From Chiloscyllium plagiosum (taxonomy: Eukaryota): DNA of 54,667 nucleotides. The stretch covers positions 7,550,443 to 7,605,109 of the forward strand of contig NC_057756.1 of assembly GCF_004010195.1 (NCBI RefSeq). Direction: 5' to 3'. The notes under the pieces were generated by a model. The model ran no database searches. It saw only the letters and a list, made by a program, of their open reading frames with translations, and was not told where the DNA came from. The translations under genes and the position numbers were made by a program. Below are positions 5,165 through 48,206 of the stretch, in pieces; the first letter of the stretch is position 1, and every line of letters starts with the position of its first letter.

Positions 5165-5193
5165 ATTCCCTTAGGAATCGGAACGAGTATAAA
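5165..5193 (+). promoter_or_regulatory. Putative core promoter of GPCR copy 1: O/E (EBF)-like palindrome plus TATA box
   Basis: ATTCCCTTAGGAAT at 5165-5178 (1 mismatch to ATTCCCNNGGGAAT) and TATAAA at 5188-5193, about 80 nt upstream of the ATG; position conserved in the paralogs. Confidence 0.5.
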
Positions 5194-5274
5194 CTGGTTT
5201 CTGAACATAGTAATATTATGTTTAACTCGAAGCTTTTGGCTTCATCACCCAGTAACAGAACCTTCATACACAAA

Positions 5275-5341
5275 ATGTTGCAGTTGTTCACCATTGTTGA
5301 TAAAGTATATTACATCACTATTGCTGCTATTGGCGTCCCTG
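5275..5341 (+). CDS. GPR139/GPR142-like class A GPCR copy 1, coding exon 1 (MLQLFTIVDKVYYITIAAIGVP, phase 1)
   Basis: AAAATG start, G|gtaagt donor, conserved in all three units; splicing to 8428 restores the TM1 GVPVN motif. Confidence 0.9.
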
Positions 5342-5360
5342 GTAAGTTCTTGTTTTAATA

Positions 5361-5695
5361 TTCATTCATGAGCTGTGAACATTGCTGGCTATGCCAGCAT
5401 TGATGGCCCAGAGGGCAGTTTAAGAGTCAGCCACATTGCTATGGGTCTGGAGTCACATGTCAGCCAGACCAGGTCAGGATAGCAGTTTATTTCCCTAAAG
5501 GACATTAGTCAACCAGATGGATTTCACCACCAATCAACAATGGATTCATGGTTATCAGAAAACTCTTAATTCCAGACTTTTGTTTCCATTGACTTCAAAT
5601 TCTATCATTTGCCATGAGGATTCAAACCTGGGTCCCCAGTACATTCCGGGGGTCTCTGGATTAATAGTCCAGTGGTAACGACACTGGGCCATTCC
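5361..5695 (-). mobile_element. tRNA-derived SINE (family not named) in intron 1
   Basis: Minus strand has a B-box-like GGTTTGAATCC; its 3' end resembles the terminus of the minus-strand LINE at 14965; shared by all three introns. Confidence 0.6.
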
Positions 5696-5962
5696 CTTCC
5701 CTGAGCAGAACTTAGAAAGTTGCATCGATCTGTGCAGTGGAATACCATGCCACCATGCTTGTATTTTATTCGAAGTATTTGTCATTTGGGTTCACTGTGG
5801 GTGAGTTAGCACTGCCATCATCGCACATGCATTATCGCGGTTGTTGCAATGTTTGTTTTGGGCTCAATAACAAAAGAATCCCTCTGAGCTGTAGATTGCA
5901 GAGATCAGGGATTCCTAGAGTAAAACAGCACAGAAACACAGCCTTCAGACAAACCAGATATT

Positions 5963-6355
5963 AAGATGGTAGCAGGGTAAGATACTACAGTCGGAGCCAC
6001 TGTCTCTCCAGTTCCTTTTCCTTGTCCTTTCTTTCCTCTTCTCCCCTTTGCAGTATTTTTTCTTCAATCCTCTCCCCAAACCTTTAACCTACCCCTAACT
6101 GGGGAATGGAGATGAGTCACGACCGGAGACAGGGCAGAAGCTGAGCACAGGAGCTGTGCCCCACAGCAGCAGCAGAGTGAGAGGGGCCGAGACAGGGATT
6201 GAATCCCGGAGTGACGACAGCAGGGAAATCCCCTGCTTTTTTCACTTTATAACTTTTGTACTTGTATCAAGGTGGCACCATTATATGGCAACAATTGTGA
6301 ACACTTTCCACTGTACTCCTGTACTTCTGTACTGGAAGACAAGTGACAACAAAGG
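5963..6355 (+). repeat. Unclassified interspersed repeat in intron 1 (internally deleted copy)
   Basis: Homologous to 23573-24240 and 44770-45395; Rex1-like 3' end (ttccactgtac...gtgacaacaaa). Confidence 0.4.
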
Positions 6356-6391
6356 ATATTCATTAGGGATGGTTGCGTTGAATTGATTATG

Positions 6392-6612
6392 GAGGAGAAA
6401 GTGAGGTCTGCAGATGCTGGAGATCAAAGTTGAAACTTTATTGCTGGAACAGCACAGCAGGTCAGGCAGCATCCAGGGAACAGGAGATTCGACGTTTCGG
6501 GCACAGGCCCTTCTTCAGGAATGCAAGAATGGCCTGTGCCCGAAACGTCGAATCTCCTGTTCCCTGGATGCTGCCTGACCTGCTGTGCTGTTCCAGCAAT
6601 AAAGTTTCAACT
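6392..6612. mobile_element. Penelope-like element remnant in inverted (hairpin) arrangement with 14-bp TSD
   Basis: Perfect 86-bp inverted repeat at 6424-6509 and 6531-6616; TTGAATTGATTATG duplicated at 6378-6391 and 6613-6626; absent from the paralogous introns. Confidence 0.7.
6487..6522 (-). ncRNA. Minimal type I hammerhead ribozyme motif (intact)
   Basis: Minus strand reads ATTC-CTGAAGA-A-GGGC CTGT GCCC-GAAAC-GTC^GAAT: stem I ATTC/GAAT, stem II, palindromic ACGT stem III. Confidence 0.7.
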
Positions 6613-6844
6613 TTGAATTGATTATGTACAAGGAAGCCATTCCTTGCTTAACAAATCCAATTCCCCATTATTTTGTTGAACAATGACGGTTTTTCTTTTA
6701 AAGAATAGTTGAGAGGAAGAAGCTCTAATATTTCCTATTCCCAAGGAAGTGCATGAATGGAAAGTAGTGATAACAGTTAACTAACATATCACCAGTACTA
6801 AGTAGGTGTTTCAAGTCTTCAACAATCACAAATTATAGTGATTC

Positions 6845-7590
6845 GAAATGTAGTTCCAGAAATTGAGACAAATGTGAGGTGCTAACTTTCAGAAACGTGA
6901 ATCACAGCAGGACTTGTACACTTAATGGTAGGGACCTAGGGACTGGTGCCAAACAAAGAGACCCTGGAATGCAGGTTCATAGTTCCTTGAAAGTGGAATC
7001 ACAGGTAGGCAGGACACAAAGAAGGTGTTTAGTACACTTGACGTTATTGGGCAGCGCATTGACAATTGGACTTCAATGCCATGTTGTGGCTGTACATGAC
7101 ATTGGTTAGACCAAGTCTAGAAAACTGCCTTCAATTCTGGTCCCCCATTAAAGGAAAAATGCTGTTAAATTTGAAAGTGTGCAGAAAAGATTTACAAGAA
7201 TGTCATGGGGGATGGAAGGTCTGAGCAATAGGAGCAGGCTGCCCAGGCTGGGGCTGTGCTTCCTGAAGCATTGACGGCTGAGGGGCATGGATAGGCAAGT
7301 GAGTAAAAACATTGTTTTAAGTTGAGAGGAGAAAGATTTAAAAGCAGTCTAAATGGAAACTTCTTCATGCAGAGGGTGATACGCGTATGAAATGAAATGT
7401 CAGAAGACGTGGTGAAGGCTGGTACAATTGCAAGATTTAAAAGGTATTTGGGTAGGTATATGAATAAGAAGTGTTTAGAGGGATATTGGGTACATGCTGG
7501 CAAATAAGACTTGATTAATTTCGGATATCTGGTTAGCATGGAGGAGATGGAATGAAGGGACTGCTTCCGTCTTGTACACGACTATGACTT
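6845..7590 (+). mobile_element. HER1/CR1 LINE 3' portion in intron 1
   Basis: gacaaatgtgaggtg...RT C-terminus and 3' UTR; homologs at 24500-24970 and 45650-46410. Confidence 0.8.
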
Positions 7591-8427
7591 TAAGTGACTG
7601 AAAGTAATTGTTGAGTTGTTGAAGTGCAGCATAGACAGCTAGTTGTGTACACACAGAGAGCAAACCATTTGCAAGAACAAGTCCAAATATATAGTTTTTT
7701 ACATGAAAAATTCTTCATTTTGTCTCATCCTCTGTGAAACTGCTGGATCAATTGACAGATCCGTTTGGTTAGCTTGATGTTCGTCAATGGTTTCGTTTTT
7801 CAATGGATATACCCTTTCCATCATGTGTCCAATTCCCAACTCCAGGTCCACTTGTTGATAAGGTGTTGATTTCCTATTGTTGGTGCCGATGTTCACAAAT
7901 TCTTGGAACATTGTTTAAGAATGAATCTGTCCCATAATGCAGGATTACGGAATGCAATGTTGTCAAATCCATGATTCTGGGCACTATATTTTTATTATAG
8001 ATGCCATTCCATGTCAGCTTTCATTGTGACCATGTTAAAATGTGTCCTTACAATATTTAAGTCCATAGCTCCTTGGCTGGGAGAGCAGAAAGAAAATGGA
8101 CAGTTTGCGGCTCTGATCATGATTGGGTTTTTTTTTCATTAACAGAATGATGTCAATGAAGCCAATACAACTTGTTCAATCTGATTCTGTAAACAACAGT
8201 AAGGTATTCAACTGAACATTTTATGACAGCATAGATATTTTGCAGTACTTCATGTTCAATACCACACACCCTTTGTTCATTAGGTGCAGCTTTATATGGG
8301 ATGGAATTGGGATTAAAATTCATTTTACAGATTAATATTCTTCCTGACCACTCTAATGTCATCTCGACTCAAATAGAAGAATGTGCGATTACATTTTTTG
8401 AATTAATTTCAGTTCTTCCTTTTACAG

Positions 8428-9338
8428 TTAATGCAGTGGCAATTGTTATCCTGTCCCGAGGGAAATGTGGACTTTCTAAATGCACCACTCATTATCTGGT
8501 GGCCATGGCAACAGCGGATCTGATGGTGATCGTCACTGACGTTGTATTGTATCAGCTGGTTCATTACTTTTACCAGAGATCATTCCTACACCTCACACCT
8601 GCATGCATTGTGATTGGCTTTTTGCTTTTAGTGAGTTCAGACTGTTCTGTCTGGTTCACTGTCACGTTCTCTGCTGATCGGTTTATTACCATTTGTTGCC
8701 GGAAACTGAAACTGAAATATTGTACAGTGAAAACAGCAGCTGTTATTCTTTCAACAACCTGCACTCTTTTCTGTCTAAAAAACATTCCCATTTTCATTAC
8801 ACGGGAACCGGTAATTGTGATTGACAATGTATATTGGTCTTGTCAAATTAAGGCCAGCTACTACACTGAATTTGGGTGGATGGTTTATGACTGGTTTGAT
8901 AAGGTTTTAACACCATTACTCCCATTCAGTTTAGTTTTGCTCTTTAATGCTTTGACAGTCAGATACGTGTTAGTGGCGAATCAGATTCGTAAAGGATTGA
9001 GGAGTCAGAACACGGAAGAGAAGCGCAGTGATCCTGAGATGGAGAGCAGAAGGAAGTCAATGATTTTACTGTTCACCATATCGAGTAGCTTCGTATTGCT
9101 GTGGTCACCCTATGTAATAAATTTCTTATACTATCGAATTGCAGCAATTGATCCCAAATCTTACAATAACAGTTTGCTTGTATTTGAAAGAATAGGATAT
9201 ATGCTGCTGAGTTTGAGTTGCTGCACAAATACGTTTATTTATGGAGTAACTCAGTCGAAGTTCAGGGAACAGTTCATTAGCGCTGTAAAATACCCAGTGA
9301 CTGCGATAAACAGAGTCATTACTTTTAGAATGAATTGA
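8428..9338 (+). CDS. GPR139/GPR142-like class A GPCR copy 1, coding exon 2 (full protein 325 aa; probable G-protein coupled receptor 139-like)
   Basis: Pyrimidine tract and tttacag acceptor; rhodopsin-family motifs MATADL (TM2), DRF (TM3), LLWSP (TM6), TNTFIY (TM7), SKFR (helix 8), TM3/ECL2 cysteines. Confidence 0.93.
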
Positions 9339-10936
9339 TGGCAATCTATAAGACAGTAACGTATACAGCTGAGTGCATAATTGGGTCATAAACATTCACC
9401 AACTGGTTTGTATCAAAAATGCTAATTTGTATGAAAATATGAACAGGAGTGGAAGCTTCCCTTCGGTTGGCTGTGAATTTATTTTGGATTGCCATAATAT
9501 TGAGACAAGATTTTTAATCGTCACCTGAAATAAATGAAATGAATCATACGAGCAATGAATCATCGTTACAGCATCCACAGACATATAGTAAAATGCCCAA
9601 GCATTCGCCAGAAAGTTATGAATCAGAGAGACTGCATTCCAACAAATAGCAACAATTTTAACAACTGGGCTACTCGTTACTGTTGGGAGCGAATTGTAAA
9701 CGAGTTCACGCACATTTTGTCTGCCTAATTTCAGTTTTGTCTTGCAATAACCTTTCCTTTCATTTCATTTACCTCCGAAATGATGTTGTTATAGGACAGC
9801 TCCGATTGGACACAGACATCAGGATTGCTGGTTCATCTTTATTTCATTTCTCATTTCATGTGGTTGCTTTTCAGTGAAAGCAAGTGTGCAACTCTGCATA
9901 TTTGTCATTCGTAATGAAAAGGGGCATAATTAAAGGAAATGAAAATAATGATAAAAGTATCTGAGCTCTTCACATATAAAACAGTTTGGAAGTTTCCAAA
10001 GGGCATGGCAAACTATCATCCCATCTGTCTTTACATGGGGCGAATGAGAGAGTTCCATTCTGTTCATCATTAATTGCTATGACTTAGCTGCTTCTTTCAC
10101 TTCCTGTTAATGGGAGTTTGTTAGACTTTCCCTTGATTATTACATAACTGAATATTCTTATCATCAAAAGATCCTATCTGATTTATAATCAAAGATTTCT
10201 GGCCTTGAATTTTCACATGAATATACAATTACAGGAGGATAACATGTTTTTCTGGAGGAGAATATGTTCCAAAACCTACCCTCTTCCAGTCTCTGTAAAA
10301 TGCCCCAAACTTGGGTTTTCATTACACAACAAAATCTTTATACTTCAAAACCAAAAACAGGTCAAGGGTTGCCTTTGCTGATCATAAAACCCTCACAATA
10401 CAAATTATCTCATAATATTTCTCCAGTACCACCCCAATTATCTGCTTTCTGGCCCATGATGGTTTGAATTGTTGGCTCCAGAAAGATTAAGATATTACTT
10501 ATTACAACAAAGATTAAAACCAACATCTCACCAGTTCAAAAACTGAATGATAAAGTACATTACATTCTAGCAACATAAATTGCTTTCCTTATATCATACT
10601 CCAGATGTCAAATGATACCAGGTTATAGTCCAACAGGATTATTTGAAATCACACACAGTTGGAACACTGCTGCTTCAACAGGTGAAGTGTCGTGTGAATT
10701 CTGACTGTGCCCATTTCACTCCAATACCAGCACCTCCATCATTGATATTATTTCACTCACATTTTATTTTCGAAATTTCTGAGTTCTGAATATTCTGATA
10801 ATAGATCATTTTCTCATATTTTATTGGGTTTTTGATGCTATTTTATTGATTTGTTTGCTTTATGCATGTTACTTTTCAAATATGCTTCAAGATGATACAT
10901 TTGTCTCTCTGTCCGAAACTATACAATAAAAAAATG

Positions 10937-11114
10937 ACCCTCTGACTAGAAAGTTACAAACATAAGTTAAAGGTTTTCAGCAACAACTGAATCTGGAACA
11001 TTGGTGACTCCTCAAATGTTAAAGGTGTATGTCTCACAACTCTCGCTTTCTATCTCACTTTTGCGACTATGTTCAAGGTTGACTTTTGATTATCTATCAT
11101 GTTATTTCTGCATA
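10937..11114 (+). repeat. 178-bp dispersed direct duplication of 12174-12351
   Basis: Four mismatches by manual comparison; single copy in units 2 and 3. Confidence 0.9.
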
Positions 11115-12808
11115 GGGTACTATATAATGAATTTCAATGTTTGTAAAATCTCATTTGGTTCACTCATGTCATTTGAGGATGGAAAGTGCCATCCTTATTT
11201 GTTCTGACCTACTTGTGACACCAGCCCCACAGCAATGTGGTGACTCTTAGCTGACGTTATGCGATCATCAATGGGTAAAAATGTTTTCAGTAGCAACACC
11301 CACGTGCAATGAATGCATTATAATAAAACCAGATCATATTTAGGTCTCTGGCTGTCATTGTCTGTGTTTGAAATAAAGGATCTTAATTTTCACTTGTGAC
11401 TGTTGTCTCACATTTCATAACCATAAAATAATAGTTGAAAAGTATCCCTGATTACTTTCAGTCGCTTTCCCACTCTCTCTTCCAAAGTTAATGACTCAAA
11501 CCCTGCTTGGTTACAAGTCTCTGGCTGATCTGATCTGTTCGCATGCATCAACAGGAAAGTGGTTGCCAAACTCTGAACCATTGATCACTCTCCGTCCTGC
11601 CGCTAGTCATTGGTTGCTGAAACTCACGTGGATAGCCTTGCTACCTTTAATGAGACAATTCCTATGTATTCTGAACACTGTCTGATATTTCATCACAATC
11701 AAACTCAGCTAAGAAAGAATACAAGTGAATTTAAGCTGCTTCATATCTGATTTCAAATCATTCCCATTCACCATGACCCTTGCACTCCAGTGGATCTTAC
11801 TTCAACCCTCAGTTAGCTTTGAAATTCACAATGTTGCTGCCAAATCCCATCATGTCCTCTGTCCTCTATCACAGTGCCACCTTCTGTATCGCCATAAGAA
11901 GGTCATTCTCTGACTATTCCATTCCTTCATATATCGACTGACATTTTAATGCCATCCAGTATTATGAAAGGTATAAACATACATCTGACCTGATGCCTCA
12001 GTAGGAGTAGGTCACCTGAAATCTAAAGGCTGCACCGACATTGAATAAGCCCAAGGCTGATAAGATTATGACTTTAATTCGGCATTGTAACCTACCACAG
12101 ATACTTCGAACATCTCTTCGCCCGGCATCAGGTTGCATGTGTCTCGTGATTATTATATGACTCTGTCTCCATCACCCTCTGACTAGAAAGTTACAAGCAT
12201 AAGTTAAAGGTTTTCAGCAACAACTGAATCTGGAACATTGATGACTCCTCAAATGTTAAAGGTGTATGTCTCACAACTCTCACTTTCAATCTCACTTTTG
12301 CGACTATGTTCAAGGTTGACTTTTGATTATCTATCATGTTATTTCTGCATATTCCTTTTTCTTTGAGGGAAGGTAATATCACAATGATAGGGGGAATGCA
12401 GGTAGGAAGGCCAAGGTAGGTACACTCTCACTCTCTGATATCACAGCAAAATGGAATTGTTTTACCTTGTTCTGATATGGTCAATTAGACACTTTATGTC
12501 AATTGAGGACAAACAGCTCAAATGACCAGCTCTCTTTAATGAATTTATTTTGAAGAAAATACATTTATTTGATGAAGAAACAGACAGGTCGAGTGTAGTG
12601 ATTGGAATAAGGTCAGCCAGGTGGACCTCAGAGAATAGGAATTCCCTGATCGGGGCTCTTAATCAGGTCAAAACAGGGGGCTCTGACTGACTGGCATAAA
12701 TAGGAGTGTCAAGGCCTCTGTTCACTAGAGGAGCTGCTATTGATCTGGCTGGGACAGTGGCATGTACAATAACAGGAGACTGGATTCTCTGGAGCTGTGA
12801 CTGACTGC

Positions 12809-12997
12809 ATGTGTGTGTCTTTGTACGTAAGTGTGTGTGTGTGTGCGCGCATACGCGCTTGTGTATGTTTGTGTTAGATAGAGAGACAGAGAGAGTGTGT
12901 GCCTGTGTGCATGTTTGTGCGAGATAGAGACAGAGAGAGAATGCGTGTGTGTGAGACAGAGAAAGAGAGTTTTGTGCACGCGCGTGTGTGTGTGTGT
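12809..12997. repeat. Compound (TG)n/(AG)n microsatellite
   Basis: Direct inspection. Confidence 0.9.
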
Positions 12998-13094
12998 AAG
13001 ATATCCAGTCCCCAGCAGAGGGAAATCATACTGTGACTACCTGTGTCCTGTGTGTGTGTGTTGGTGATGATTCAGTCAGTTACTGATGATTCAA

Positions 13095-14310
13095 TGCATG
13101 AATAGCAAGATTTAGAGGGACATGGACCAAATGTGGGCAAACAGCTCTACATTAATTTAGCATATCTGTTTGGCATAGATGAGTTGGACTAAAGGATTTC
13201 TTTCTGCACAGTACAACTCCATGCTTTTTTTTTGTAGTTCATTAGATAATAATTGCTTTTTCGTCAATATTCTAATATTCAGAACTAAATCTGGAAAGGT
13301 TCAACGAGATTGCAAAGGAGTAGATATAGTCCTTCTATTGCAGAAGGAAAGGTTCCGGTAAGCAGGACGTGTTGCTCAGTTATCCTGGTGACTGTTATGG
13401 GAAGTAGTTAGAATTGATCCTGTAGGAGAACCTCATTGGAAAAATTGGGAATAGTCAGCTGGAATGTTTTAAATGGAGATTATTTTTAGTTAATTACTTA
13501 GAATTCTTTGAATGAGTAATGCATGCTATTGATAAAGGGGAGCCCATTGATGTGTTGCGTTTGAATTTCGGGAGTCATTTGACAAGATGCTACATGAAAG
13601 GTTATTGCAAACATTAGAGTTGATCCTGTAGGGGATCATATCTTCGGTAATGTCTGTGCCTTTGTTCTCCTGAAAGGAAGGATGTCAAGGTATTGGAGGT
13701 AGTTCCGTGAGTATTTAGTTGATTGATATCTGGCATGAATGAGTTACCTTGTGAATAACAATTTTACAGGCAGCTCTTGTTTTTTGCTGGAGGGGGAGTG
13801 ACTCAATGAAGTATGTAAAATCCTGGGTGGGCTTGACAAGCTAAATGTGGAAAGGACGTTTCAGCTTACATGTAAACCCAGAGCTCGGGGACACTGCTTT
13901 GTAATTAGAGGTAGCCCTTCCAGGATAGAGGGACAATGTTTCTTTTTCTCAGAATGTTGGGTGATATTGAAATATTCTGTCTCAGAAGGTGGCAGAAGTG
14001 CAATCATTAAACAATTTTAAGATGGGCCTGATAGATTGGGCAAGGGAGTTAAAGATTCTGAGGGTCAGGTGGAATTCTGGAATTCAGAATACAGGAAGGT
14101 TAGTCATGATCTTAGATTATTTCCTCATCAGCCTATTCAGAGACGTTATTACACTCCTTTGAAGCAGGTGGGACTTGAGCCCAGGTCTCCTAGTTCAGAT
14201 TGAGGGACACTACCAACAAATCAATTGCGCCCTCCTTTATGATCTTATTGAATGGTTGGGGTTAAGCTCAAGGGGCAAAATGACTTACCACCATTCCCAA
14301 ATAGTCTGTT
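13095..14310 (+). mobile_element. Fragmented old CR1-clade LINE pieces
   Basis: 3' UTR piece plus RT remnants (gataaaggggagcccattgatgtg); homologs at 29870-31080 and 51725-52320. Confidence 0.65.
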
Positions 14311-14964
14311 TAGCTCAGTCAATTAGTTGTTATTCATTTATTTGGCATTGGTTCAATCAGTTGGTGCTGATGTAGCCATGGTGCCCCAGTTCCCACAATT
14401 CCATTGGGCTGACAAAGGCCCTAATTGCACCATGGGAAAATCCTTTTGCCAACACACAGTTCCTCAACATGATATGAATCACAGCTTTTATGCATTTTTC
14501 TCAGCTTCCAGCCAGCGAGACTTTCTCTTCCTTCAATTTTGATCAAAAAACCAATGTTGCCTTCATTGGTGGCGGTGATTCTGAATTAGTACAATGGATG
14601 TCAGCATTGGTCCATGATATAACACCAATATGGCTGCCACCTCATGGGACAGGCCCAAATTCATAATGGAGCAGAGAGGCCAGAAGAGCAAGAGCTGACT
14701 GACCCTCATGTCTGTTTTAACTCTTTCTCCTGCAGGTTAAATACGATGTGTCATTTTGAACTCACACACCCAAGGGAAAATATCCTTGTCATTAGCCTTA
14801 TCCATGCCCCTCAGATTTTATACCCCTCTATAATGTCAACCTTCAGCCTCCTACTTTCCAGTGAACAAACTCCCAAGCTATCCAGCCTCTCGTTACAATT
14901 CAGACCCTCCATTACTGGCAACATCCAGGTAAATCTCTTCAGAACTCGGTTCAATTCAATTTTA

Positions 14965-15790
14965 AAAAATCTTTGTGGGGATGTGGGCGTCGCTGACTGG
15001 GCCAGCATTGAATGTCCATCCCTAGTTGCCCCTTCGGAAGGTAATGGTGAGCTGCTTTCTTGAACTGCTGCAGTTCACCTGCTGTAGGTTGACCCACAAT
15101 GTCATTGGGGAGGGAATTCAGGATTTTGACTGAAAGACATAGAAGGAATGGCAGTATATTTCAGTATATTTCAGTATACTCCAAAGTATATGCTGCCCTA
15201 TTCCTTCTGGATGGAAGTGACTGTGGATTTGGAAGATATTGTCGAAGGATCTTTGATGAATTTCTGCACTGCAACTTGTAGATGGTATGCACTGCTGCTA
15301 ATGAGTGTTGGTGGTGGAGAGATAAGATCCTTGTGGATGTGGTGCTAATCAATCGGGGGCTACTTTGCCTTTTGTACATTGTTGGAGCTGCACCCAACCA
15401 GGCAAGTGGGGAGTATTTCAACTCACTCGTGATTTGTGTTTTGTAGATGACGGACAGGCTTTGTGGAGTCAGGAGGCGATCTCCTCCCTGCAGCATTCCT
15501 AGCCTCTGACCTGCGCTTCTAGCCACTGTTTGTTTGGTGAGTCTAGTTGAGTTGCTGGTTAATGATAACTCTGGGGATTTTGATTGTGTGGGAATCAGTG
15601 AGGGTAACATCATTGAATGTCAAGGGGTGGTGGTTAGACTGTCCATTATTGAAGATGGTCATAGCATGGCATTTGTGTGGCATGAATGTTACTTGCCACT
15701 TCCCAGCCCAAGCCTGGGCATTGTCCAGATCTTTTCCATTTGATCATGGACTGCTTCTGTATTTGTGGAGTCATGAATAGTGAATACAAC
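14965..15790 (-). mobile_element. Non-LTR retrotransposon (CR1/L2 group) 3' part
   Basis: Minus ORF 15161-15613 AGQRLGML..LLTPQSLSVIYKTQITSELKYSPLAW; homologs at 31770 and 52470. Confidence 0.8.
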
Positions 15791-37364: not shown

Positions 37365-38170
37365 GTTGAAGCCCAACGAGATCTCAAACAGGCACTACAA
37401 CTGGAAAATGTGGCAAGTGGACCATTTGAGTTCCAGGGTTTTCTGACGGAAGTGGACACCCTCAGCAGCCGATTGAGCTTGGGGAACACCACTTGAGTGA
37501 AGGTATTTGCATAGCGTCACTCAGGAGATATCCTGAACAGAGGGTCACCAGGTCAGCCCACAGCAAATCCCTGAAATAATGCAAAGACCTGATTGAATTG
37601 TTTACATTTTCTCAAGGAGCTGGGCCAGCAGGCCATTGTAGTTGCTGCCAGTTAGTGGACTCGAGACAGCAAAAGATTCCCGCTCTGATGGATTAAACAA
37701 CAGAGCTCATGGGCTGGTGTACAGGACAGTGCACACCCTGGGAAGTCCACTTACAGCTGGTAGAGAAACATTGAATTGCTCAACAACAACCAAATCAGAA
37801 CCAAACAAAGTAAACTTCCTGTTTAATGGTCACCGGTTCTCAGGGAGATGGCTGAATCAGTGATTGCAAAACCAGTCTTGAACAAAATTCACTCTGGAAG
37901 GTTTAAGTGCTGTCATACGGATGTAGGTCACGTCACATGTTGACCTGGAAACAATTCCACGATTCTGCAAGGCCCACCAGTGCCATTTGCCTTATGGGCA
38001 AAAGGAGAGGCAGAAATCAGAAGGTGGGAAAGTGAAGGAATACCAAGCCAGGTGCAGTTTGAAGAATGGGCAGCACTAGGCTTACTTATTGTGAATCCCA
38101 AAGGGTTATACCGCCTTTATGGAGGATGTTGAGCAATTGGTAAACTGCCTTTCATGGCTGGATACACACC
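37365..38170 (+). mobile_element. Degenerate Ty3/Gypsy remnant (unit 3)
   Basis: Homolog of 1130-2190. Confidence 0.7.
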
Positions 38171-39089
38171 CTTCATGAATCCATGATGACTCTCTCTGAT
38201 TAACTGACATTTGTTTTGAGGTGATTGTTACCCTGTCCTTTATTACAGATTCTAACAACTTCCCCATCACAGGTGTCAGGCTGACTCATCTGTAATCCTC
38301 TGGTTTCTCGATTTCCCTTTTCAAAGAGTGAAGCAAAATGAGCAGATTTCTGATCCAGAGGTAAAACCCTTGAGTTCAGGGAATTATGAAAGATTATAAT
38401 GAGGGCATCTGCAAAATATTCTCTGACCTACTTTAACATCAGTAGATGGAAGCCATCAGGTCCTGATTATTTGCCACACTTCAGTTCCATTCATTTCCCC
38501 ATTACTGATGATTTATTGTTGCTAATTTTATTTGGACCTTGCCCTGATCCTCTGTTAATTTCTGTGTAACTTCCAGCAACCGACCTTCCTTGTCTGCTCT
38601 CAATACAGAAACAAACTACTCATTTAGCATGTCTGCTATTTCAACACGGTCATTGACGATATCCCCACTCTCAGCCTTCAGTGGGGGCCAGCAGTACTCC
38701 AAGCAGCTGCATTCCCTTTCTATAACCAGAAAATCATTTCTTACTGTCTTTTACATTCCATGAATGTTTCCTTTCATAATCCTTTTCAGCTGTCCTGATA
38801 AGTTGCTTTGTGGGCCCCTATATCAAGCCTTATCTTTGTCCCTTTCTATGGCATCTGTTCTTTGTGTTTTTATAAGAACTTTCTTTTCATTTTATGCTGC
38901 TACTGACTTCCTTGGATCTGATGGGGTGACTGCACTGTAGAATGGTAGAACAGTTGGTAAACAGACAAATGATGAATGATAATGTTCTTTCTAAATATTA
39001 ATTGCAATTCTCCCACTTTTAGTACTTGCTTCACACAACATGTTATCTTTGAAAAACGTTACAATTCTGCATTTTATTTTAATTATTCT

Positions 39090-40505
39090 TTTACCAGGAT
39101 GTTGCCTCGGCTGGAACTTCTCAGTTATTGAGAGAGAGATTGGGCATAGTTCAGTTGTTTTCTTTAGAGTAGAGGAGATTTAGAGAGGATAAGCAAAATG
39201 TAAAATTCTAAGTGTCGCACACTTAGAGTAGGCAGGAATGAACATTTTCCCGTCTTGGTGGGATCTATGAAAAGGAACATAGATTAACGGTAAGGGGCAC
39301 AGGTTATAGAGGAGATGTGAGGAAAAGACTTTTTCACATTGAGGTGAGATGGAATATATAAGGATGTTACCAAGACTCGACAGCTTGAGTTATAAGGAGA
39401 GGCTGGGTAGAGTCAGAGTCAGAGTCATACAGCATGGAAACATGGAGCATTTTGTCCCTGTAGTATAGGAGGCTGAGGAGTGACCCTGTACAGATTCATA
39501 AAATCATAAGTGACATGCATAAGTTGAATAGGCAAGGTCTTCTCCCCAGGGTACAGCGTGATCAAAACTAGAGGGTATAGGTTTAAGGTGCGATAGGAAA
39601 GTTTTAAAAGGCACCTGAAGGTTAATTTCTTTTTCATGCAGAGGGTAGTGTGCATATGGAATGAGCTGTCAGAGGAAGAGGTGGAGGTGGTACAATTACA
39701 ACATGTGAAAGGCACTTGGATGAGTATACGTATCGGAAGAGTTTAGGGGGATGCTGGCAAATGGGAGTAGATAACCTGGTTGGCATGGACAGGTTAGACC
39801 AAAGGGTCTGTGTCTATGCTGTTGAGTTCCATGACTCTATGAACAGGAAACTGCTGATGTGACCCCCCAACTCAAAATGAGAGACAGGGAACTATAGTTA
39901 CATTAGCTTAACCTCTCTTTTGAGGAAAATGCTGGATTCTGTTATAAAAGGTGAAATCAGAATATTTTGAAACATGTGATATCATCAAGCAGAGTGAGCA
40001 TTGGTTCATGACAGGGAACTGAAAATGAGGAAGCAACAAGCAGGGTAGATGAAGGGGGTCAAGTAGTTGTAAAGTATTAGAATTTCAACAAGGTGTCACA
40101 CATCAGGTTACTTTGTAGGATAGGAACAAATGGCATAAGGTGCACAACATGATCATGGATAGAGGATTTGCTCATTGGAAATAGCTCGTTGGTATATATG
40201 ATCATTCAGGCCACAAATATTAACAACATATTTTAGTGATGTGGATGACGAAAATGAGTGTTCTATCATCATTTTATGGATGATGTACACATAGGTGAGA
40301 AGGTAAGGGATAAGGATGTCTCAGGGTGTCCACAAAGTAGCACGGACGGGTTAAGCCATTTGGAAAAAAAAACTTGACTGAAAAAATGTAAAGTGCGAAA
40401 ATCTTGTCAGGAAGAATAGGAGAGTTGAAAATAATTTAAAATAGGGAAAGTTCGTCGAAATCTTCAATAGAGAGAAACTTGTCAGTTGGTCGAGTGCATG
40501 AATCA
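39090..40505 (+). mobile_element. Stacked CR1/HER1 LINE fragments (unit 3)
   Basis: Homolog of 18820-20330. Confidence 0.7.
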
Positions 40506-40514
40506 CAAAAAGGT

Positions 40515-40890
40515 GTCATGGAGATGTACAACACAGAAACAGACCCTTTGGTTCAACTTGTCCATGCCAAGCAGATATCCTACATTAATCTAGTCCCATT
40601 TGTGAACACTTAACCCATATCCCTCTGAACTCTTCCTATTCATATACGCTCCAAGATGCCTTTTAAATTTTGCAAATGTAACAGATTCCGCCATTTCCAC
40701 TGGTAACTCATTCCATACAGGCACTAACATCGGTGTGAGAAAGTTGCCCCTTAGGTCCCTTTTAAATCTTTCCCCTCTCACCTTAAACCTACGCCCTCTA
40801 CGTCTGTACTCCACTACATTGGGAAAAGACCTTGTCTATTTCCCCTGTCTATGTCACTCATGGTTTTATAAACCTCTATAAGATCATCCA
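40515..40890 (-). mobile_element. HER1/CR1 LINE 3' end
   Basis: Minus ORF RFKVRGERFKRDLRGNF..VWNELP. Confidence 0.85.
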
Positions 40891-41359
40891 AATCAACAAG
40901 TAACAGCAATGCTGGCTTTCATTCTAAAGAAAGCGGAACATAAAAACAGTGAGTAGTTGCTAAATCTAAAGACAGCACTGGTCAGACCGTCCTGAAATAC
41001 TGTGATCATTTCTGGTCCCCTCATCTAAGGCAAGATATTGGAGGCAGTTCAGAACAGATTCTTTCATTTGATTCCAGGTTATGGACGAATTTTCATTGGT
41101 GGAAAGGTTGTACAGAATTGGCTTCGAATCACTGAATTTTTGGAAAATATGAGGAGTCTGGATGTCTTTGTGTTATGGGGTTTAATTTATTAATAATGAC
41201 AACTAACTGGAGGTAAATCTAACCTGAAATCCATATGTTGAAAGAAGTCTGACTTTGATAGGATGAGTCAAGACTTGACCATAATGAAATGAAATTCTTG
41301 ATTCAAGTAGCAAACTTTTAGGTGCACCTTGGATAGCATCCAATCCAGATGGATCACAA

Positions 41360-41765
41360 TTTGGTAAGACAACTACTCTACTTAAGACCGCAAGAAATTT
41401 GAGAAAGTTATGAACACTACCTAATTCATCTCAAAACCAGCCTTCCTTCCATTGACTCTGTCTATATTTCCCACTGCCTCAGGGAAGCAGCCAAGATCAT
41501 CAAAGACCCCGACCACCTCGGTTAAATTCTCTTCCACTCTCTTCCATTGGGCAGAAGATACAACAGTTTGAAAACAAGTACCAACAGACTGAAGAACAGC
41601 TTCTTCCCTGCTGTTATCAGACTAATGAATTGGTCTCCTTTCCTCCATTACAGACATTAACACCACAGGGTGCATCCGCAAGGCTAACAGCATTCAGTCT
41701 CTCACAGTCAGACACTGCAACAGTTTCTTCCCACAAGCCATTAGGCTCCTTAACACTGTATAATC
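41360..41765 (+). mobile_element. Rex1/Babar-like LINE 3' fragments
   Basis: Two NSFFP-encoding segments. Confidence 0.65.
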
Positions 41766-42007
41766 ATACTGTATTCCATTTGTAGTTTTTGGATAATTTT
41801 TTGAATTGCTGCTAAAACAATGATTTATTAATGATCATTCATTGTTACACTGTTACAGTGTTACATAAGGCTGGAATCTTTGCGATACTGGTCAGTTCTA
41901 TTGCAATGGAAAAATTTTCATAATATCCAATGCCATAGTTCATTGGATGGTGGTGGTGATGATAATACAATGTGACAAAAACAACGTTAAATGATATATT
42001 TCAAAAT

Positions 42008-42180
42008 CCAAAGATGTGCAGATTAGGTGAATTTGCTATGCTAAATTGTTAGGTGCATTAGTCAGGGATAAATGTAGGGTTGGGGAGTGGGTCTGGGTGA
42101 GTTGCTTTTCGGAGGGTCGGTGTGGACTTGTTGGGTCAAAGGACCTGTTTCCATACTGTAGGTAATCTAATCTAATCTAA
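42008..42180 (+). mobile_element. HE1-like SINE 3' half
   Basis: ccaaagatgtgcag...gtttccatactgtag followed by (TAATC)3. Confidence 0.75.
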
Positions 42181-43378
42181 AAAAACTGAAATGTCTTACA
42201 TGAAAACATACAAATTATAAGCATGTGATAGGACAGGCTAAGAGGAAAACTGGACGTGCACAGACAGTCAAATGCCTTGGCAGTTAATTTGAAAGGGAAT
42301 CCAAAAATTCTTTCATGATATCAAGATAGTGGGGATGCAATAGGAAGCATTATAGGCTCACTGAGGGTCAAAGTGTGAGATTTATTCTCAGAAAGTCAGG
42401 AACAGTATAGAACTGTGAGGATTACTTTACGATCATGTTTACTAATGAAGGGATGCTGATAATATCGATAGAAGTGGAGACAGCAAATTTAATGTGGTGT
42501 GAAATTTGTTTGAAAGGAGGCTTCGAGTGGAATTAATTCTGACTCAATTGGGATTACAGCTTTGAAAGGGAGCAAAGTTGTTATCTTCATTCAGATTCTA
42601 GAAAAAGGAAAATTTACCAAAGGACTTGGGAGCAGTAAATTTGATGAGCTTAGCTCAGAACAAACAGAGAGATTTTAAATGGCAGTTTAAAATTTCCAGG
42701 ATTCTAGTGTAGCTATTTTTAAATGACTGATGGACAAACAGCACGCATTGGATGAAAACATTAAAACAAATGTCCTTGGGTTAATTGATTTTGAGGTAAT
42801 TGTAAATACAAGAAGACTGTTCTCAATGATTGGTCCATCCAGAACCACGGTTTACAGGATAAGAAATAAATCTTTGAGTGCAAAAATAGCACAAAAACCT
42901 CTTCATCCACAGCGTGGTGATCCCATGGAATTCTCTGCCATAGCATTGAATATTTTCAAGAAAGCAATCTTTATTTTTGGATAAAGGGATTAAAGGATGT
43001 CAGGAGAAAGCTGGGAGCAGGGGCCTATGTTGGATGATAGGCCATCATTAGTGTTGGGGGGTGAAGTAGGTTTGAAGGACCGAATGGGCTCACCCTACTC
43101 GTATATTCTATGTCTCTGTGTTTGATTGAGATGCCTCCTTGGAAGCAGCAGCACCTTATTAGCTTGAGCTGCTGTATTATTTGGTTGTTCAATTCAGGTC
43201 GCTGGACCTGTCAAACACAAGTACTGATTACAGTCTCTGAAGGAGTTTGGGAGGCTGTATTGATTTATGAACCTGAGGGACAACCTTTCCATGCAGAAGG
43301 TGGTGCATGTATGGAACGAGCTTACAGATGAGGAGATAGAGACTGGTTCAATTATAGCATTGAAAAGGCACCTGGATA

Positions 43379-43682
43379 GGCACGGTGGCACAGTGGTTAG
43401 CACGGCTGCCTCACAGCGCCAGAGACCCGGGTTCACTTCCCGCCTCAGGCGACTGACTGTGTGGAGTTTGCATGCTCTCCCCGTGTCTGCGTGGGTTTCC
43501 TCCGGTTTCCTCCCACAGTCCAAAGATGTGCAGGTCAGGTGAATTGGCCATGCTAAATTGCCCGTAGTGTTAGGTAAGGGGTACATGTAGGGGTATGGGT
43601 GGGTTGCGCTTCGGCGGGGCGGTGTGGACTTGTTGGGCCAAAGGGCCTGTTTCCACACTGTAAGTAATCTAATCTAATCTAA
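43379..43682 (+). mobile_element. Young HE1 SINE inserted in the HER1 remnant upstream of GPCR copy 3
   Basis: GGCACGGTGGCACAGTGGTTAGC head, core, (TAATC)n tail; splits the LINE piece at 43265-43812. Confidence 0.92.
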
Positions 43683-43995
43683 ACAGAAATGATTTAGAGG
43701 GATATGGGCAAACTGCTGGCAAATGGGACCAAGTCAGATTGGAATGTCTGGCCAGCGCGGACACATTTAACCTAGGGTCTGTTTCCATGCTGTATAACTC
43801 TATGATTCTATGATTTCTGCAATTCATTTCTCACAGGGATTGTTCTACCAATGAGTCATGAAAGCTGTAAGCCGTCTCTTTGATATTTTCTTATGAAGTC
43901 AGAACTAAATAATTTGAATGCAACAAGGATTTAATATCTCGGTGGTGACATATTTTCCCTAACAGAGATAAAAATAGCAATGATGCAACTTTAAC

Positions 43996-44025
43996 ATTTC
44001 CTTGGGAATCCGAAAGAGAATAAAA
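43996..44025 (+). promoter_or_regulatory. Degenerate promoter of copy 3: O/E-like site, TATA mutated
   Basis: ATTTCCTTGGGAAT at 43996-44009; AATAAAA at 44019-44025 where the paralogs have TATAAA. Confidence 0.4.
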
Positions 44026-44104
44026 TAGTTTCTGAACATAGTAATACAGTGTTCAATTCAAAGGTTTTGGCTTCATCACCCGGGGCAGAACCTTCATACA
44101 CAAA

Positions 44105-44171
44105 ATGCTGCAGTTGTTCACCATTGTTGATAAAGTATATTACATCACTATTGCTGTTATTGGCATCCCTG
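44105..44171 (+). pseudogene. GPR139/GPR142-like GPCR copy 3, exon 1 (intact exon of a probable pseudogene)
   Basis: MLQLFTIVDKVYYITIAVIGIP followed by G|gtaagt. Confidence 0.85.
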
Positions 44172-44194
44172 GTAAGTTTCTTTTTAAAATATTG

Positions 44195-44525
44195 ATTCAT
44201 GGGATGTGGGCATCGCTGGCTAGGCCAGCATTGATGGCTCAGAGGGAAGTTTAAGTGTCAACAACTTTGCTGTGCGTCTGGAATCATATGTCAGCGCGAC
44301 CAGGTCAGGATCACAATTTAATTCCCGAAAGGAATTTAGTGAAGCAATTGGATTTTTCCAACAATCTACATTTGATTTACCATTATCATTAAATTCCTTA
44401 TTCCAGATTTTTGTCTTCATTGAATTCAAATTCCACCATCTGCCCTGGGGATTCAAACCTGGATCCCCAGTACATTGCCGGGGTCTCTGGATTAACAGTC
44501 CAGTGATAATGCCACAAGGCCATTC
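44195..44525 (-). mobile_element. tRNA-derived SINE in intron 1
   Basis: Homolog of 5361-5695. Confidence 0.6.
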
Positions 44526-45649
44526 CCATTCCTGAACAGAACTTTGAAAGTTCAGTGGAAGGCCATGCCACCGCGCTCATATTTTGCTCGAAGTATTTGC
44601 CATTTGGGTCAGTCAGCACTGCCATCATCGGGTGTGCATTATCAGGGTTGTTGTAAATTTTGTTCGGGACTCAATAATACGAGAATCCCTGTGAGCAGTA
44701 GATTACAGAGATCATAGACTCATAGAATTATACAGCAGGGAAACACAGCCTCTGGACAAATCAGATACGAAGACGGTCGCAGGGTAAGACACTCCAGTCG
44801 GAGCTCCTGTCTCTCCCGTTCCTTTTCCTTTCTTTTAATTTTCTCCACTTTGCAGTTTTTGTTTCTTCATCCACCCTCCCCGAATCTTTCACCTACCCCG
44901 ACCTGAGGAATGGAGATGATTCTCGACCAGAGTCAGGGTGGGAGCTGAGCACACGGGCCGTGTCCCACAGAGGCAGCAGAGCGAGACCCCCACGGACTGA
45001 ATTCCCGAGTTATGGGAGCAGGGAAATCCCATGTTCCAGAGTGGCACGGGATGAAGTGTGACTGACCTTGTTGCTGCTAAGTGCCAGTGAGGGAGTAGTC
45101 TGGAGGCTGGAGCGATGGCAGACACTTGTTGAACTTGGGCCCTGGCCCCATGTGTTGAGCTGCTGCTGTTGTAATTCTTTACCTGGCTGGACTGTAAATT
45201 ACTATCTCATTCCTAACTCATTCTCAGACACTATCAGTACTGTTACTGCTTTCCTCATGATGCTGTTTTGTATAGCTGCACTATTTTTTTTAACCCTGTA
45301 AGATTTGTACTGGTACCTAAGATGGCACTATTAAAAGGCAGCCATTGTAAATGATTTCCACTGTACTCCTGTACTGAAGGACAAGGGACAACAAATGACC
45401 TTCAATGTCGATCATTACGATGTGCTGGTGATGAGCAAGGAAGTCTTTTCTTGCGAAACAAATCTAATGCCCCTTTTTGTGTTGAACAATTAAGGTTTTT
45501 CTTTCAAAGAATAGTTTACAGGAAGAAGCGCTGAGATTTCCTAATCCCAACGAGCTTCATGAATGGAAAGCAGTGATAACCGTTCACTAACATATGGCCA
45601 GTACTAAGTATGTTTTTCCAGTCTTCAACACAATTAGTGATTCGAAATG

Positions 45650-46410
45650 TAGCTTCCAGAAATTGAGACAAATGTGAGGTGCTAAATTTCAGAAAGGCAA
45701 ATCAGTGAAGGGCTTGGACACTTAATGGTAGGGTCCTGGGGACTGGTGCCAAGCAAACAGACCTTGGAATGCAGGTTCACAGTTCCTTGAAAGTGAGTTG
45801 GCAGATACGCAGAATGGTAAAGAAGGTATTTTGTACACTTGCCTTTACTGGGTAGTGCTTTGAGTATCAGAGTTGGGATGTCAGGATGTGGCTGTACAGG
45901 ACATTAGTTAGGCCACTTCTGGAAAACTGCCTTCATTTCCAGTCTCCCTGTAATAGGAAAGATGCTGTCAAATTTTAAAGTGATTAGAAAAGATTTACAA
46001 GGATGTCGTCGGAGATGGAAAGTCTAAACCATATGGAGAGGCTGGATAGGCTGGGGCTGTGTTCCCTGGAGCCTTAAAGGCTGAGGGACATGGATAGAGT
46101 AAATACTAAAGGTCTTCTCCCTAGGATAAGGGATCCCAAAACTAGAGGGCATTGGTTCAAGGTGAGAGGGGAAAGATTTAAAAGGGAGCTAAGAGGCAGC
46201 TTTTCCAAGCAGAGGGTGAAGTGTGTATGGAATGAGCTGCCAGAGGAAGTGGTGGAGGCTGGTACAATTACAACACTAAAAGGCATCTGGATGGGTATAT
46301 GAAAAGGAAGGGTTTAGAAGGATATTGGCTCAATACTGGCAAATGGGACTAGATTAATTTCGGATACCTGGTCAGCATGGATGAGTGGTCTGAAGGGTCT
46401 ATTTCTGAGC
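45650..46410 (+). mobile_element. HER1/CR1 LINE 3' portion in intron 1
   Basis: ORF 46090 KTRGHWFKVRGERFKRELRG..VWNELPEEVVEAG. Confidence 0.85.
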
Positions 46411-47294
46411 TGGGCTCTAAGTGATTGAAAACAATTGTTGAGGTACAGCATAGATAGCTGGCTGTCTTCACGGAGGGAGGAAACCAATTACAAGAATGAG
46501 TTCTAATATATACTTTCTCACATGAAAGAACTCTTCGTTTTGTATTTTCCTTTGTTGAACTGCAGGATCAATTGACAGCACCGGTTGGTTATCTTGATGT
46601 TCATTGATGGCTTTATTTATCTTACAGCACATTTCAGGTTCTCAATGGTTATCACCTGTCTGTCATGTCTTCAATCCCTAACTCATGATCCACTTGCTGA
46701 TATGGTGTGGATATGTTCTCCTATCATGTGTGCCGCTGTTCCCATATTCTTCCAGAATAATGTTTAAGAATGTGTCTGTCCTGTAAGGTGGGATTATGTA
46801 ATGTAATGGTGTCAAATACATGATTCGGGTCAGTTTATTTTTAATATGATATCATTCTATGTCAGCTTGCATTGTGACCGTGCTAAAATGAGGCCTTACA
46901 ACATTTAAATCCTTAGCTAGGTGATCAACTTGGATAATTGTTGGGAACACAGAAGAAAATGGACAGGTTACAACACTCCTCATTTTTTTTTGTTTCCATT
47001 AACAGAATAATGTCAGTGAAGCCAATAGAACATGTTCAGTCTGATTCTATATGCAACAGTAACATACAGAACTGAACATTTTCCACCTCCAAAGCAACTT
47101 TGCAGTTTTTAATGTTCAACACCACACACCCATTCCCTTTGTTCATTCGGTACAGATTAATGTGGGATGGAATCAGGATTAAAATTCTTTTTACCTTTTG
47201 ATATTCTTCCTGACTCCCCTAATGTCATCTTGTCTCAAATGGAAGGCTTTTTGAACTACAATTTCTAAACTAATTTCACTTCTCCCTCTTACAG

Positions 47295-48206
47295 TTAATG
47301 CACTGGCAATTGCGATTCTGTCCCAAGGAAAATGCGGCCTCTCCAGATGCACTACTCATTACCTGGTGGCTATGGCAACAGCGGACCTGATGGTCATCAT
47401 CACTGATGTTATATTGTATCAACTGAATCACTACTTTTACCAAGGATCATTCCTGCACCTCACACCTGCATGCATTGGGATTCAGTTCCTGCTTTTAATG
47501 AGTTCAGACTGTTCTGTCTGGTTCACTGTCACTTTCTCCGCTCATCGGTTTGTGACCATTTGTTGCCGGAAACTGAAACTGAAATATTGCACAGTGAAAA
47601 CAGCAGCTGTTATTCTTTCAACAACCTTCACTCTTTCCTTTTGAAAGAATGTTCCCATTTTCATTACACGGGAACCTCTGACTGTAGTTGACAATGTGCA
47701 CTGGTCTTGTCAAATGAAGGCCTGCTATTTTACTGAACTTGGGTGGGTGATATATGACTGGTTTGGTAAAGTGTTAACACCATTACTCCCATTCAGTTTA
47801 GTTTTGCTCTTCAATGCTTTGACAGTCAGATATGTTTTAGTGGTGAATCGGATCCGTAAAGGATTGAGGAGTCAGAACACGGAAGAGAAGCGCAGTGATC
47901 CTGAGATGGAGAGCAGAAGGAAGTCAATGATTTTACTGTTCACCATATCGAGTAGCTTCATATTGTTGTGGTCACCCTATGTAATAAATTTCTTATATTA
48001 TCGAATTGCAGCAATTGATCCCAAATCTTATAATGACAGTTTGCATATATTTGAAAGAATTGGATATGTGCTGCTGAGCTTGAGTTGCTGCACAAATACG
48101 TTTATTTATGGAGTAACTCAGTCGAAGTTCAGGGAACAGTTCATTAATGCTGTAAAATACCCACCTGATTTCAATCAGCAGAGTCTTTACTTTCAGAATG
48201 AATTGA
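47295..48206 (+). pseudogene. GPR139/GPR142-like GPCR copy 3, exon 2, disrupted
   Basis: Acceptor intact; in-frame TGA at 47642-47644; DRF->HRF; +1 insertion near 48164 bypasses the ancestral stop at 48204-48206 (frame runs to 48271). Confidence 0.85.

Follow-up and report, generated by a model that had tools for sequence, protein, structure and literature searches.

A shark and ray receptor family varying most at its target-binding region may be an unrecognised set of chemical sensors

Three neighbouring genes, G1 to G3, in the window (the whole 54,667-nucleotide stretch of DNA analysed here) form one tandem array. They belong to a large family of orphan class A G-protein-coupled receptors (GPCRs) of cartilaginous fishes. 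The family has almost certainly expanded and diversified in its binding pocket. Because its shark and ray members vary most at the target-binding region, they may represent chemical sensors that have so far escaped notice.

Results

A tandem array of two intact receptors and a pseudogene

The three paralogues lie head to tail on the + strand, with two exons each. G1 (exon 1, 5275..5341; exon 2, 8428..9338) and G2 (22708..22774; 25265..26175) are intact and encode 325 amino acids each, and G3 (44105..44171; 47295..48206) is a pseudogene, as a prior sequence-only reading had described. G3 is interrupted by a TGA at codon 139 (position 47642) and by the insertion of 1 nt near 48164; it also has the substitutions D3.49>H in the DRF motif (47543) and D5.42>G. 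The identical gene layout noted in that reading was also confirmed. Exon 1, spanning in G1 the ATG, the N-terminus, the first half of TM1 and a phase-1 donor, is 67 bp in all three genes; exon 2, from TM1 to the stop, is 911, 911 and 912 bp; the phase-1, GT-AG intron falls inside TM1, just before N1.50. The human GPR139 gene probably carries an intron at this position too. ATG-to-ATG distances of 17,433 bp (G1–G2) and 21,397 bp (G2–G3) reproduce the reported 17.4 and 21.4 kb spacing. N1.50 is residue 24 of the window proteins, so the N-terminus is very short, again as read; no N-glycosylation sequon was found in the first 12 residues of 93 family proteins of 315–335 aa with the TM1 motif (0/93).

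Whole units of 17–21 kb were duplicated head to tail on the + strand, including their LINE/SINE load. In promoter register, unit 1 (5047..22472) is collinear through intron, 3' flank and old repeats; it is followed by unit 2 (22473..43867) and by unit 3 (43868..54667), which ends at the window edge, still collinear with unit 2 to ~54300. Identity among the three copies is 90–91% in coding sequence and 78–86% in the flanks. G2 is 98% identical over 311 residues to the Chiloscyllium punctatum protein P0003.

Such duplication of repeat-rich segments could point to mostly neutral growth by unequal crossing-over, yielding receptors that largely duplicate one another, respond to one or a few endogenous ligands and vary in the pocket under relaxed constraint, a reading that we consider unlikely. 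It would accommodate the near-identical pair of G2-like proteins in C. punctatum (P0003 and P0004), the dead G3, the G3-like C. punctatum protein P0006, which lacks R3.50, and a dN/dS that exceeded 1 in no region of the three sequences compared. Against it, dN/dS between the intact copies G1 and G2 was 0.10 overall, rising to 0.29–0.41 across TM4, ECL2 and the top of TM5. A copy is thus either maintained by purifying selection or lost to decay. Variation had been described as focused on ECL2. That loop (26 of 311 residues) is indeed enriched, with 9 of the 42 variable sites (p=0.007), but TM4 adds another 6, so the focus is TM4 plus ECL2. The three window copies differ at few pocket sites, G1 and G2 at 2.64 and 3.29, so there may be much redundancy among the most recent duplicates.

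Synonymous divergence was uneven, with dS of 0.14–0.23 over codons 184–311 and 0.40–0.52 over codons 23–183 (Fisher p 0.003–0.011), and 0.16–0.26 in the flanks. Gene conversion was considered for the more alike 3' part and is not shown, because 3' dS is close to flank level; it is the 5' part whose dS is high.

Placement near GPR139 and GPR142

The window genes are class A (rhodopsin-like) GPCRs. G1 and G2 matched only 7tm_1 in Pfam (73 and 76 bits, cut-off 30.5), and the predicted model (pLDDT 70) has seven long helices and class A fold matches. The class A landmarks N24, D53, D106-R107, W248, N290, Y294, C82 and C161 are invariant or nearly so: N1.50, D2.50, DRx, W6.48, N7.49/Y7.53 and the TM3–ECL2 cysteines are kept, and P7.50 is replaced by T. 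By sequence the family does not belong with the OR, TAAR, V1R or V2R receptors: none of these stood among the matches listed, Pfam gave 7tm_1 alone, and D3.32 was present in 0 of 199 proteins.

With P0001 as query, human GPR139 scored 39.7 bits. An amphibian orphan scored 128 and a coelacanth orphan 106; an amphioxus-like protein reached 80 bits and the Aplysia sex peptide receptor 73. A family profile likewise gave GPR139 60 bits, against 75–177 for other orphan clades. Among solved structures GPR139 ranked first with this profile (60 bits, next 37), as it did for the amphibian and coelacanth orphans. By sequence score, then, GPR139 is the nearest characterised vertebrate receptor of the family. 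The assignment to a GPR139-like family holds as far as the GPR139/GPR142 neighbourhood goes; the genes are not GPR139 or GPR142 themselves. Orthology to GPR139 was rejected on the higher scores of other orphans, one of four ligand residues kept, and three copies in 55 kb. In phylogeny, separate orphan clades are the nearest bony-vertebrate relatives of the expanded clade; of the two trees, neither of which included true GPR139 or GPR142 sequences, one was a quick version and the other a FastTree tree with a long-branch warning at the root.

The GPR139 site for Trp/Phe comprises F3x33, H5x43, W6x48 and N7x38 (PMC5430874). The corresponding residues of G1 and G2 are L90, D180, W248 and Y280, so only W6.48 is kept. 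Across the wider family all four were found in 1 of 128 proteins and at least three in 26 of 128, and a single one survives in 64 of the 71 close relatives. The suggestion of L-Trp or L-Phe as ligands thus does not extend to the window genes, though some other subfamilies keep three of the four residues. These subfamilies, and the rank of GPR139 as nearest solved structure by sequence, are what would favour amino-acid sensing in the GPR139 manner, in which aromatic amino acids, or others, would be detected either in food as odours or internally in gut or brain. We regard this as improbable for the family, given the residues lost from the window genes and most close relatives and the greater closeness to other orphans than to GPR139.

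Family size and taxonomic range

The sequence search returned 1,910 matches out of 2,583 candidates. The best 120 of these 1,910 were all from sharks or rays (120/120), 72 of them from the horn shark, and 116 of the 120 matches listed carried the automatic name GPR139. Pooling three listings gave at least 92 horn-shark proteins, which formed at least 91 clusters at 95% identity and at least 85 at 90%; these counts are lower bounds and not genome-wide. The copy number, for which a small count would have spoken against an expansion, is therefore large. Together with the tandem units and the dead G3, it upholds the earlier picture of a lineage-expanded, birth-and-death repertoire. In a DNA run, exon-2 word depth was 107–2,077, compared with roughly 8–44 in unique flanks; this is not a copy number, but it fits many similar loci.

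Among the matches listed, the family ranged over sharks, rays and skates, with one Callorhinchus protein. Shark and batoid labels required at least seven changes on starred branches of the FastTree tree, so several subfamilies predate the shark–batoid split. Such persistence of many subfamilies across sharks and rays speaks against neutral growth. Searches naming the receptor, over titles and abstract starts, found no description of a cartilaginous-fish expansion, and the term GPR139 was absent from the readable supplements of PMC7677710 and PMC10115646.

A variable binding pocket on a conserved intracellular face

Mean entropy across 71 proteins was 1.48 bits at pocket positions and 0.62 bits at other TM positions (p=1e-5). 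A non-overlapping set of 128 proteins gave 2.19 and 1.22 bits (p=9e-6). In the latter set, pocket positions also exceeded non-pocket positions in the extracellular half of the TM bundle (1.61 bits, p=0.004), so that variation sits in pocket-facing positions specifically, contrary to what neutral growth would predict. ICL1 and ICL2 were the least variable regions. A signature of 12 pocket sites, picked after inspection of the 71-sequence alignment, took 123 states among 128 shark and ray proteins, and differed by at most two letters among nine frog, salamander, caecilian, sturgeon and bichir proteins. This variable pocket on a conserved intracellular face fits what would be expected of a ligand-diversified receptor repertoire.

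The pocket bears a net negative charge in 62 proteins of the set of 71 and in 95 of the set of 128. In the window subfamily the pocket is acidic (D3.37, D5.39, D5.42) and conserved from bamboo shark to horn shark, a further point against relaxed constraint. From this acidity, cationic ligands (amines or basic peptides) appear more likely than L-Trp or L-Phe for the window subfamily. D5.42 occurs in 47 of 128 proteins and is not family-wide; Asp5.42 is an amine anchor in teleost TAARs (PMC4695389).

The same features allow another, less favoured reading, namely that the receptors are immune or barrier sensors on leukocytes, mast-like cells or somatosensory neurons, detecting microbial or tissue cationic peptides and metabolites in the manner of rodent FPRs and MRGPRs. 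Those families share the clustering, pseudogenes, short N-terminus and variable acidic pocket. The predicted ECL2 is a beta-hairpin and the best fold matches are peptide receptors, weak evidence at pLDDT 70; C3.25 is kept in 118 of 127 proteins and the ECL2 cysteine in 119 of 127. Chemokine receptors, however, reached at most 34 bits against the family profile, compared with 60 for GPR139, and the family does not group with them. We hold an immune or barrier role to be possible but doubtful.

Promoter sites and expression

Putative O/E (EBF)-like sites lie on the + strand upstream of each start. At G2 (22602..22628) the site is a perfect TCCCNNGGGA (22602-22611) with TATAAA at 22623-22628; at G1 (5167..5193) it has one mismatch (5167-5176) and TATAAA at 5188-5193; at G3 (43998..44024) it has one mismatch and AATAAA at the TATA position. 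The O/E-type promoter site of the sequence-only reading is thus present, and perfect at G2 alone of the three starts, but its frequency in the whole window is not above chance: two perfect matches against 0.73±0.81 expected (two or more in 19 of 100 shuffles), and 20 one-mismatch matches against 17.6 expected. The three copies were inherited by duplication and are not independent. As evidence for a chemosensory role the site is weak. EBF1 also acts in B cells, binding the same motif, which would also suit immune sensors. A search for promoters of distant paralogues, using the exon-1 donor pattern in metagenome contigs, yielded 12 loci with a family-like exon at none (0/12).

Two RNA runs were sampled at ~2/100 and 6/100 of reads (target 5000–11000), with signal mostly repeat-derived. 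The single-cell run, of unstated tissue, gave exon-2 depth below 0.4, nothing over exon 1 and no splice junction listed; one exon-2 read bore three G2/G3-type letters. No reads were placed from the second run. In the catshark, expression of OR genes extends to sites other than the nose (PMC11979771), and a repertoire of receptors may therefore serve functions other than smell.

Discussion

We propose that a single conserved orphan receptor from the neighbourhood of GPR139/142 gave rise to the family; amphibians, sturgeon and bichir still have roughly one such gene per species. Whole 17–21 kb units have duplicated head to tail, and across the family the intracellular face is near fixed and the pocket and ECL2 have diversified. 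All members would feed one common G-protein pathway, each subfamily binding different small external ligands, and would act in scattered cells of the olfactory, oral, gill or skin epithelium. We judge the chances of such a chemosensory role to be even. A stronger version appears rather unlikely: that no chemoreceptor family of cartilaginous fishes is larger and that this one is an independent olfactory- or taste-type system co-opted from one orphan receptor, with one or a few receptors per cell, at least twice as numerous as V2Rs and offsetting near-absent ORs and TAARs. It would have been overlooked because annotation names every copy 'probable GPR139'.

Sharks are thought to smell with ~35–40 V2Rs and a handful of other receptors (PMC6368271, PMC11979771). 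Set against the 35–40 V2Rs of the catshark, the at least 85 distinct horn-shark proteins, whose pocket is diversified, would make the candidate repertoire more than twice as large. Should the role be immune or somatosensory, the family would still be an extensive GPCR radiation, hitherto undescribed, in a lineage that branched early among jawed vertebrates.

Comparison with known systems

The sister clade of the shark family is the orphan annotated 'probable GPR139' (XP_069092602.1 and its relatives), found as 20 amphibian entries from 20 species and one sturgeon among 25 matches, plus one bichir; the node uniting the two clades has SH 99. It has the same ICL1, ICL2 and ICL3 motifs. Unlike the expanded shark family, it forms about one protein cluster per species, with a near-invariant, basic pocket (R2.61, K6.51, K6.55, R7.35), and this conserved gene could help to trace what the ancestral receptor bound. 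Coelacanth and teleost orphans (XP_005988539.1) are the next relatives (106 and 101 bits), sister to the shark and amphibian clades at SH 90, and sequence searches gave no sign of their expansion. They are probably the GPR210A/B of Rinne et al. 2019 (PMC6504862), a text that does not mention sharks.

GPR139 and GPR142, class A orphans that respond to L-Trp and L-Phe, have W6.48 and the TM1–TM3 motif pattern in common with the family; GPR139 is 25% identical to the window protein by structural alignment. C3.25 and a longer ECL2 set the shark family apart, both missing from the human GPR139 chain in the alignment, and the family runs to dozens of copies per genome, whereas mammalian GPR139 is single copy. 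Invertebrate MIP/sex-peptide, FMRFamide and Srw-type receptors score 73–105 bits, form the outgroup in the tree and have longer N-termini; Atlas neighbours of the family include FMRFamide-receptor-like and Srw-bearing clusters.

Compared with ORs and TAARs, the shark family differs in sequence membership, in its intron inside TM1 and in D3.32 (0/199). What it shares with OR, TAAR, V1R (ORA), V2R, FPR and MRGPR families is their manner of growth and variation: tandem clusters, pseudogenes, a short N-terminus, and a variable pocket on a fixed intracellular face. TAARs and FPRs derive from endogenous-ligand receptors, and the shark family, if chemosensory, would be a further case of an orphan receptor turned sensor array.

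Results and Discussion

Three GPCR-like frames were recovered on the + strand by a six-frame scan, in agreement with the head-to-tail paralogues described in the sequence-only reading. The genes G1 (5275–5341 and 8428–9338), G2 (22708–22774 and 25265–26175) and G3 (44105–44171 and 47295–48206) have the common two-exon layout it had proposed (67-bp exon 1, 911–912 bp exon 2), with a phase-1, GT-AG intron of 2.5–3.1 kb inside TM1, and its ATG-to-ATG spacings (17,433 bp, then 21,397 bp) were reproduced. Its 325-aa products held for G1 and G2 but not for G3, which carries a stop at codon 139. G3 is the single pseudogene expected, with a further 1-nt insertion near 48164 and D3.49 replaced by H. 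Self-comparison of the window indicated that entire units were duplicated, introns, flanks and old repeats included (75–85% identity). The first 5 kb were collinear with the G2–G3 spacer (left end, 707–5052, of which 707–4851 matched 36931–43377) and the last 10 kb with sequence after G2 (right end, 52332–54298, matching 31626–34906). As both ends are collinear with inter-gene spacers, the array may extend past them.

The G2 product shared 98% identity with a protein of Chiloscyllium punctatum, suggesting a bamboo shark or near relative as the source of the window. G3 was equally close (89%) to the two C. punctatum proteins P0003 and P0006. P0006 keeps an open frame, but has W in place of R3.50, and G3 combines H at 3.49 with its stop; these are possibly independent decays of one lineage. 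The G1 and G2 introns (6394–6616 and 23051–23226; self-comparison) each contain a short interspersed repeat as two adjoining partial copies in opposite orientation, the G1 pair showing very high depth in DNA and RNA reads alike. Spacer fragments at 15830–16799 and 35331–37898 (six-frame scan) are decayed and presumably LINE-like reverse-transcriptase/endonuclease. Close to the window end, a perfect 164-bp tandem duplication (54207–54535) is either a recent event or an assembly artefact.

The dN/dS ratio of G1 versus G2 was 0.10, and both copies are therefore under purifying selection. Across the three G1–G3 pairs it reached 0.29–0.41 from TM4 through ECL2 to the top of TM5, and no region in the G1–G3 comparison exceeded 1. 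The suggested focus of variation on ECL2 was partly borne out, with 9 of 42 variable sites in this loop (311 codons; p=0.007) and 6 more in TM4. The locus has undergone tandem duplication, purifying selection and loss of one copy; a mostly neutral amplification appears improbable. Exon 2 dS among G1–G3 was 0.40–0.52 for codons 23–183, 0.14–0.23 for codons 184–311 and 0.16–0.26 in the flanks, a 5'/3' contrast that could stem from mosaic exchange with more divergent paralogues.

An O/E-type promoter site had also been proposed. A palindrome was present ~105 bp before each ATG, and 11–12 bp before TATAAA in G1 and G2, but was perfect in G2 only, with window-wide counts at chance; the G1–G3 palindromes share descent. 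In a single-cell RNA run of unstated tissue, exon 2 depth was <0.4 and no splice junction was listed; a second RNA run placed no reads on the G1 region. In catshark, OR gene expression extends beyond the nose (PMC11979771), so gene-family shape cannot tell the expressing organ. An immune or somatosensory repertoire resembling FPR/MRGPR receptors, which would share that shape, is a less probable reading.

Pfam assigned 7tm_1 alone to the window proteins. The earlier GPR139-like assignment stood insofar as human GPR139 was the best solved-structure match by sequence (39.7 bits), but orphans from salamander (128 bits) and coelacanth (106), an amphioxus-like protein (80) and the Aplysia sex peptide receptor (73) scored higher. 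The family profile kept this order (GPR139 60 bits, others 75–177). On sequence comparison, the window receptors are related to GPR139 but distinct from it. With the salamander orphan as query, the 25 matches were 20 amphibian proteins, each from a different species, together with 4 from elasmobranchs and 1 from sturgeon. In two quick trees without true GPR139 sequences, cartilaginous-fish proteins (SH 84–86) formed the sister group of an amphibian–sturgeon–bichir clade (SH 99); the coelacanth/teleost orphan branched outside this grouping in both. The sister orphan (P0224, P0276–P0295, P0372) is represented by roughly one protein in each species, among frogs, salamanders, a caecilian, sturgeon and bichir, and its pocket is basic and near-invariant; the listed matches of the salamander-query and basal-profile searches included no amniote or teleost member. 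This low-copy clade in bony vertebrates is part of what the analysis adds on the expansion. Rinne et al. placed unnamed orphan sets (GPR210A/B) beside GPR139/142 in fishes and coelacanth, and the portions of that paper available to us make no mention of sharks (PMC6504862).

The G1 exon 2 query matched 1,910 proteins among 2,583 candidates. All 120 matches listed came from sharks and rays, 116 of them named 'probable/putative GPR139' and 72 from horn shark, spread over many contigs of different lengths. Of the best 120 of 142 matches to a basal-member profile, 112 were elasmobranch; the rest were 4 unnamed proteins, 3 from bony vertebrates and 1 from Callorhinchus. Pooling three match listings gave, as a lower bound, at least 92 horn-shark family proteins (91 clusters at 95% identity, 85 at 90%), and the lineage expansion anticipated earlier is supported. 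Catshark has 35 V2R and 5 V2R-like genes and 8 ORs (PMC6368271). Shark and batoid proteins were interleaved (the starred branches require 7 or more changes of label) and a Callorhinchus protein was nested within the cartilaginous-fish clade with modest support, indicating a radiation both old and ongoing. Automatic names of some members (P0064, P0067, P0180, P0371, P0378, P0404, P0412) are misleading (capa receptor, CCR1, vasopressin V2, tachykinin, GPR15, ACKR3, SIFamide receptor-like), and name-based counts of the shark/ray family consequently come out too low. The GPCR radiation of cartilaginous fishes is real and large, and apparently undescribed so far. Receptor-named and broader searches of openly accessible papers found no literature on it in the text available, nor is it described in the accessible parts of PMC12294341, PMC10620051, PMC7270403 and bioRxiv 10.1101/2024.09.09.611499.

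Among 71 close relatives, mean entropy was 1.48 bits at 30 standard pocket positions, compared to 0.62 at 122 other TM positions (p=1e-5), 0.84 at 58 extracellular-half ones (p=0.002) and 0.43–0.46 in ICL1 and ICL2. A non-overlapping set of 128 proteins, 4 of them unnamed matches, repeated the pattern (pocket 2.19, other TM 1.22, extracellular-half 1.61). A 12-site pocket signature, its sites chosen from the 71-protein set, took 123 states among the 128 proteins; 9 amphibian, sturgeon and bichir proteins were at most two letters apart. The family combines a conserved intracellular face and a diversified pocket with a conserved low-copy sister gene and, as judged from protein alignments, bears the signature of a ligand-diversified repertoire. 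Its members would feed one common G-protein pathway. GPR139 couples to Gq/11, and the same coupling is proposed here by analogy. Many ligand specificities would be read out by that pathway in sparse sensory cells, an arrangement to which we give an even chance.

The pocket was net acidic in 62/71 close relatives and 95/128 wider-family proteins. D5.42, the amine anchor of teleost TAARs (PMC4695389), was present in 57/71 and 47/128, and D3.32 in none of the 199 (71 + 128). A predicted model (pLDDT 70, pTM 0.65) had seven helices and a beta-hairpin ECL2; its fold matches, generic peptide-type class A receptors, do not discriminate.

Activation of GPR139 requires F3x33, H5x43, W6x48 and N7x38, according to Nohr et al. 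(PMC5430874). The G1 equivalents are L90, D180, W248 and Y280, with one of four kept (alignment with human GPR139), and amino-acid sensing in the GPR139 manner is very unlikely. The window subfamily's pocket is nearly fixed from bamboo shark to horn shark, except at 3.29, 3.33 and K/R at 5.43. This near-fixity argues against a simple reading of the pocket, as does the comparison of the wider family with GPR139, at least three of whose four activation residues are retained in 26 of the 128 proteins.
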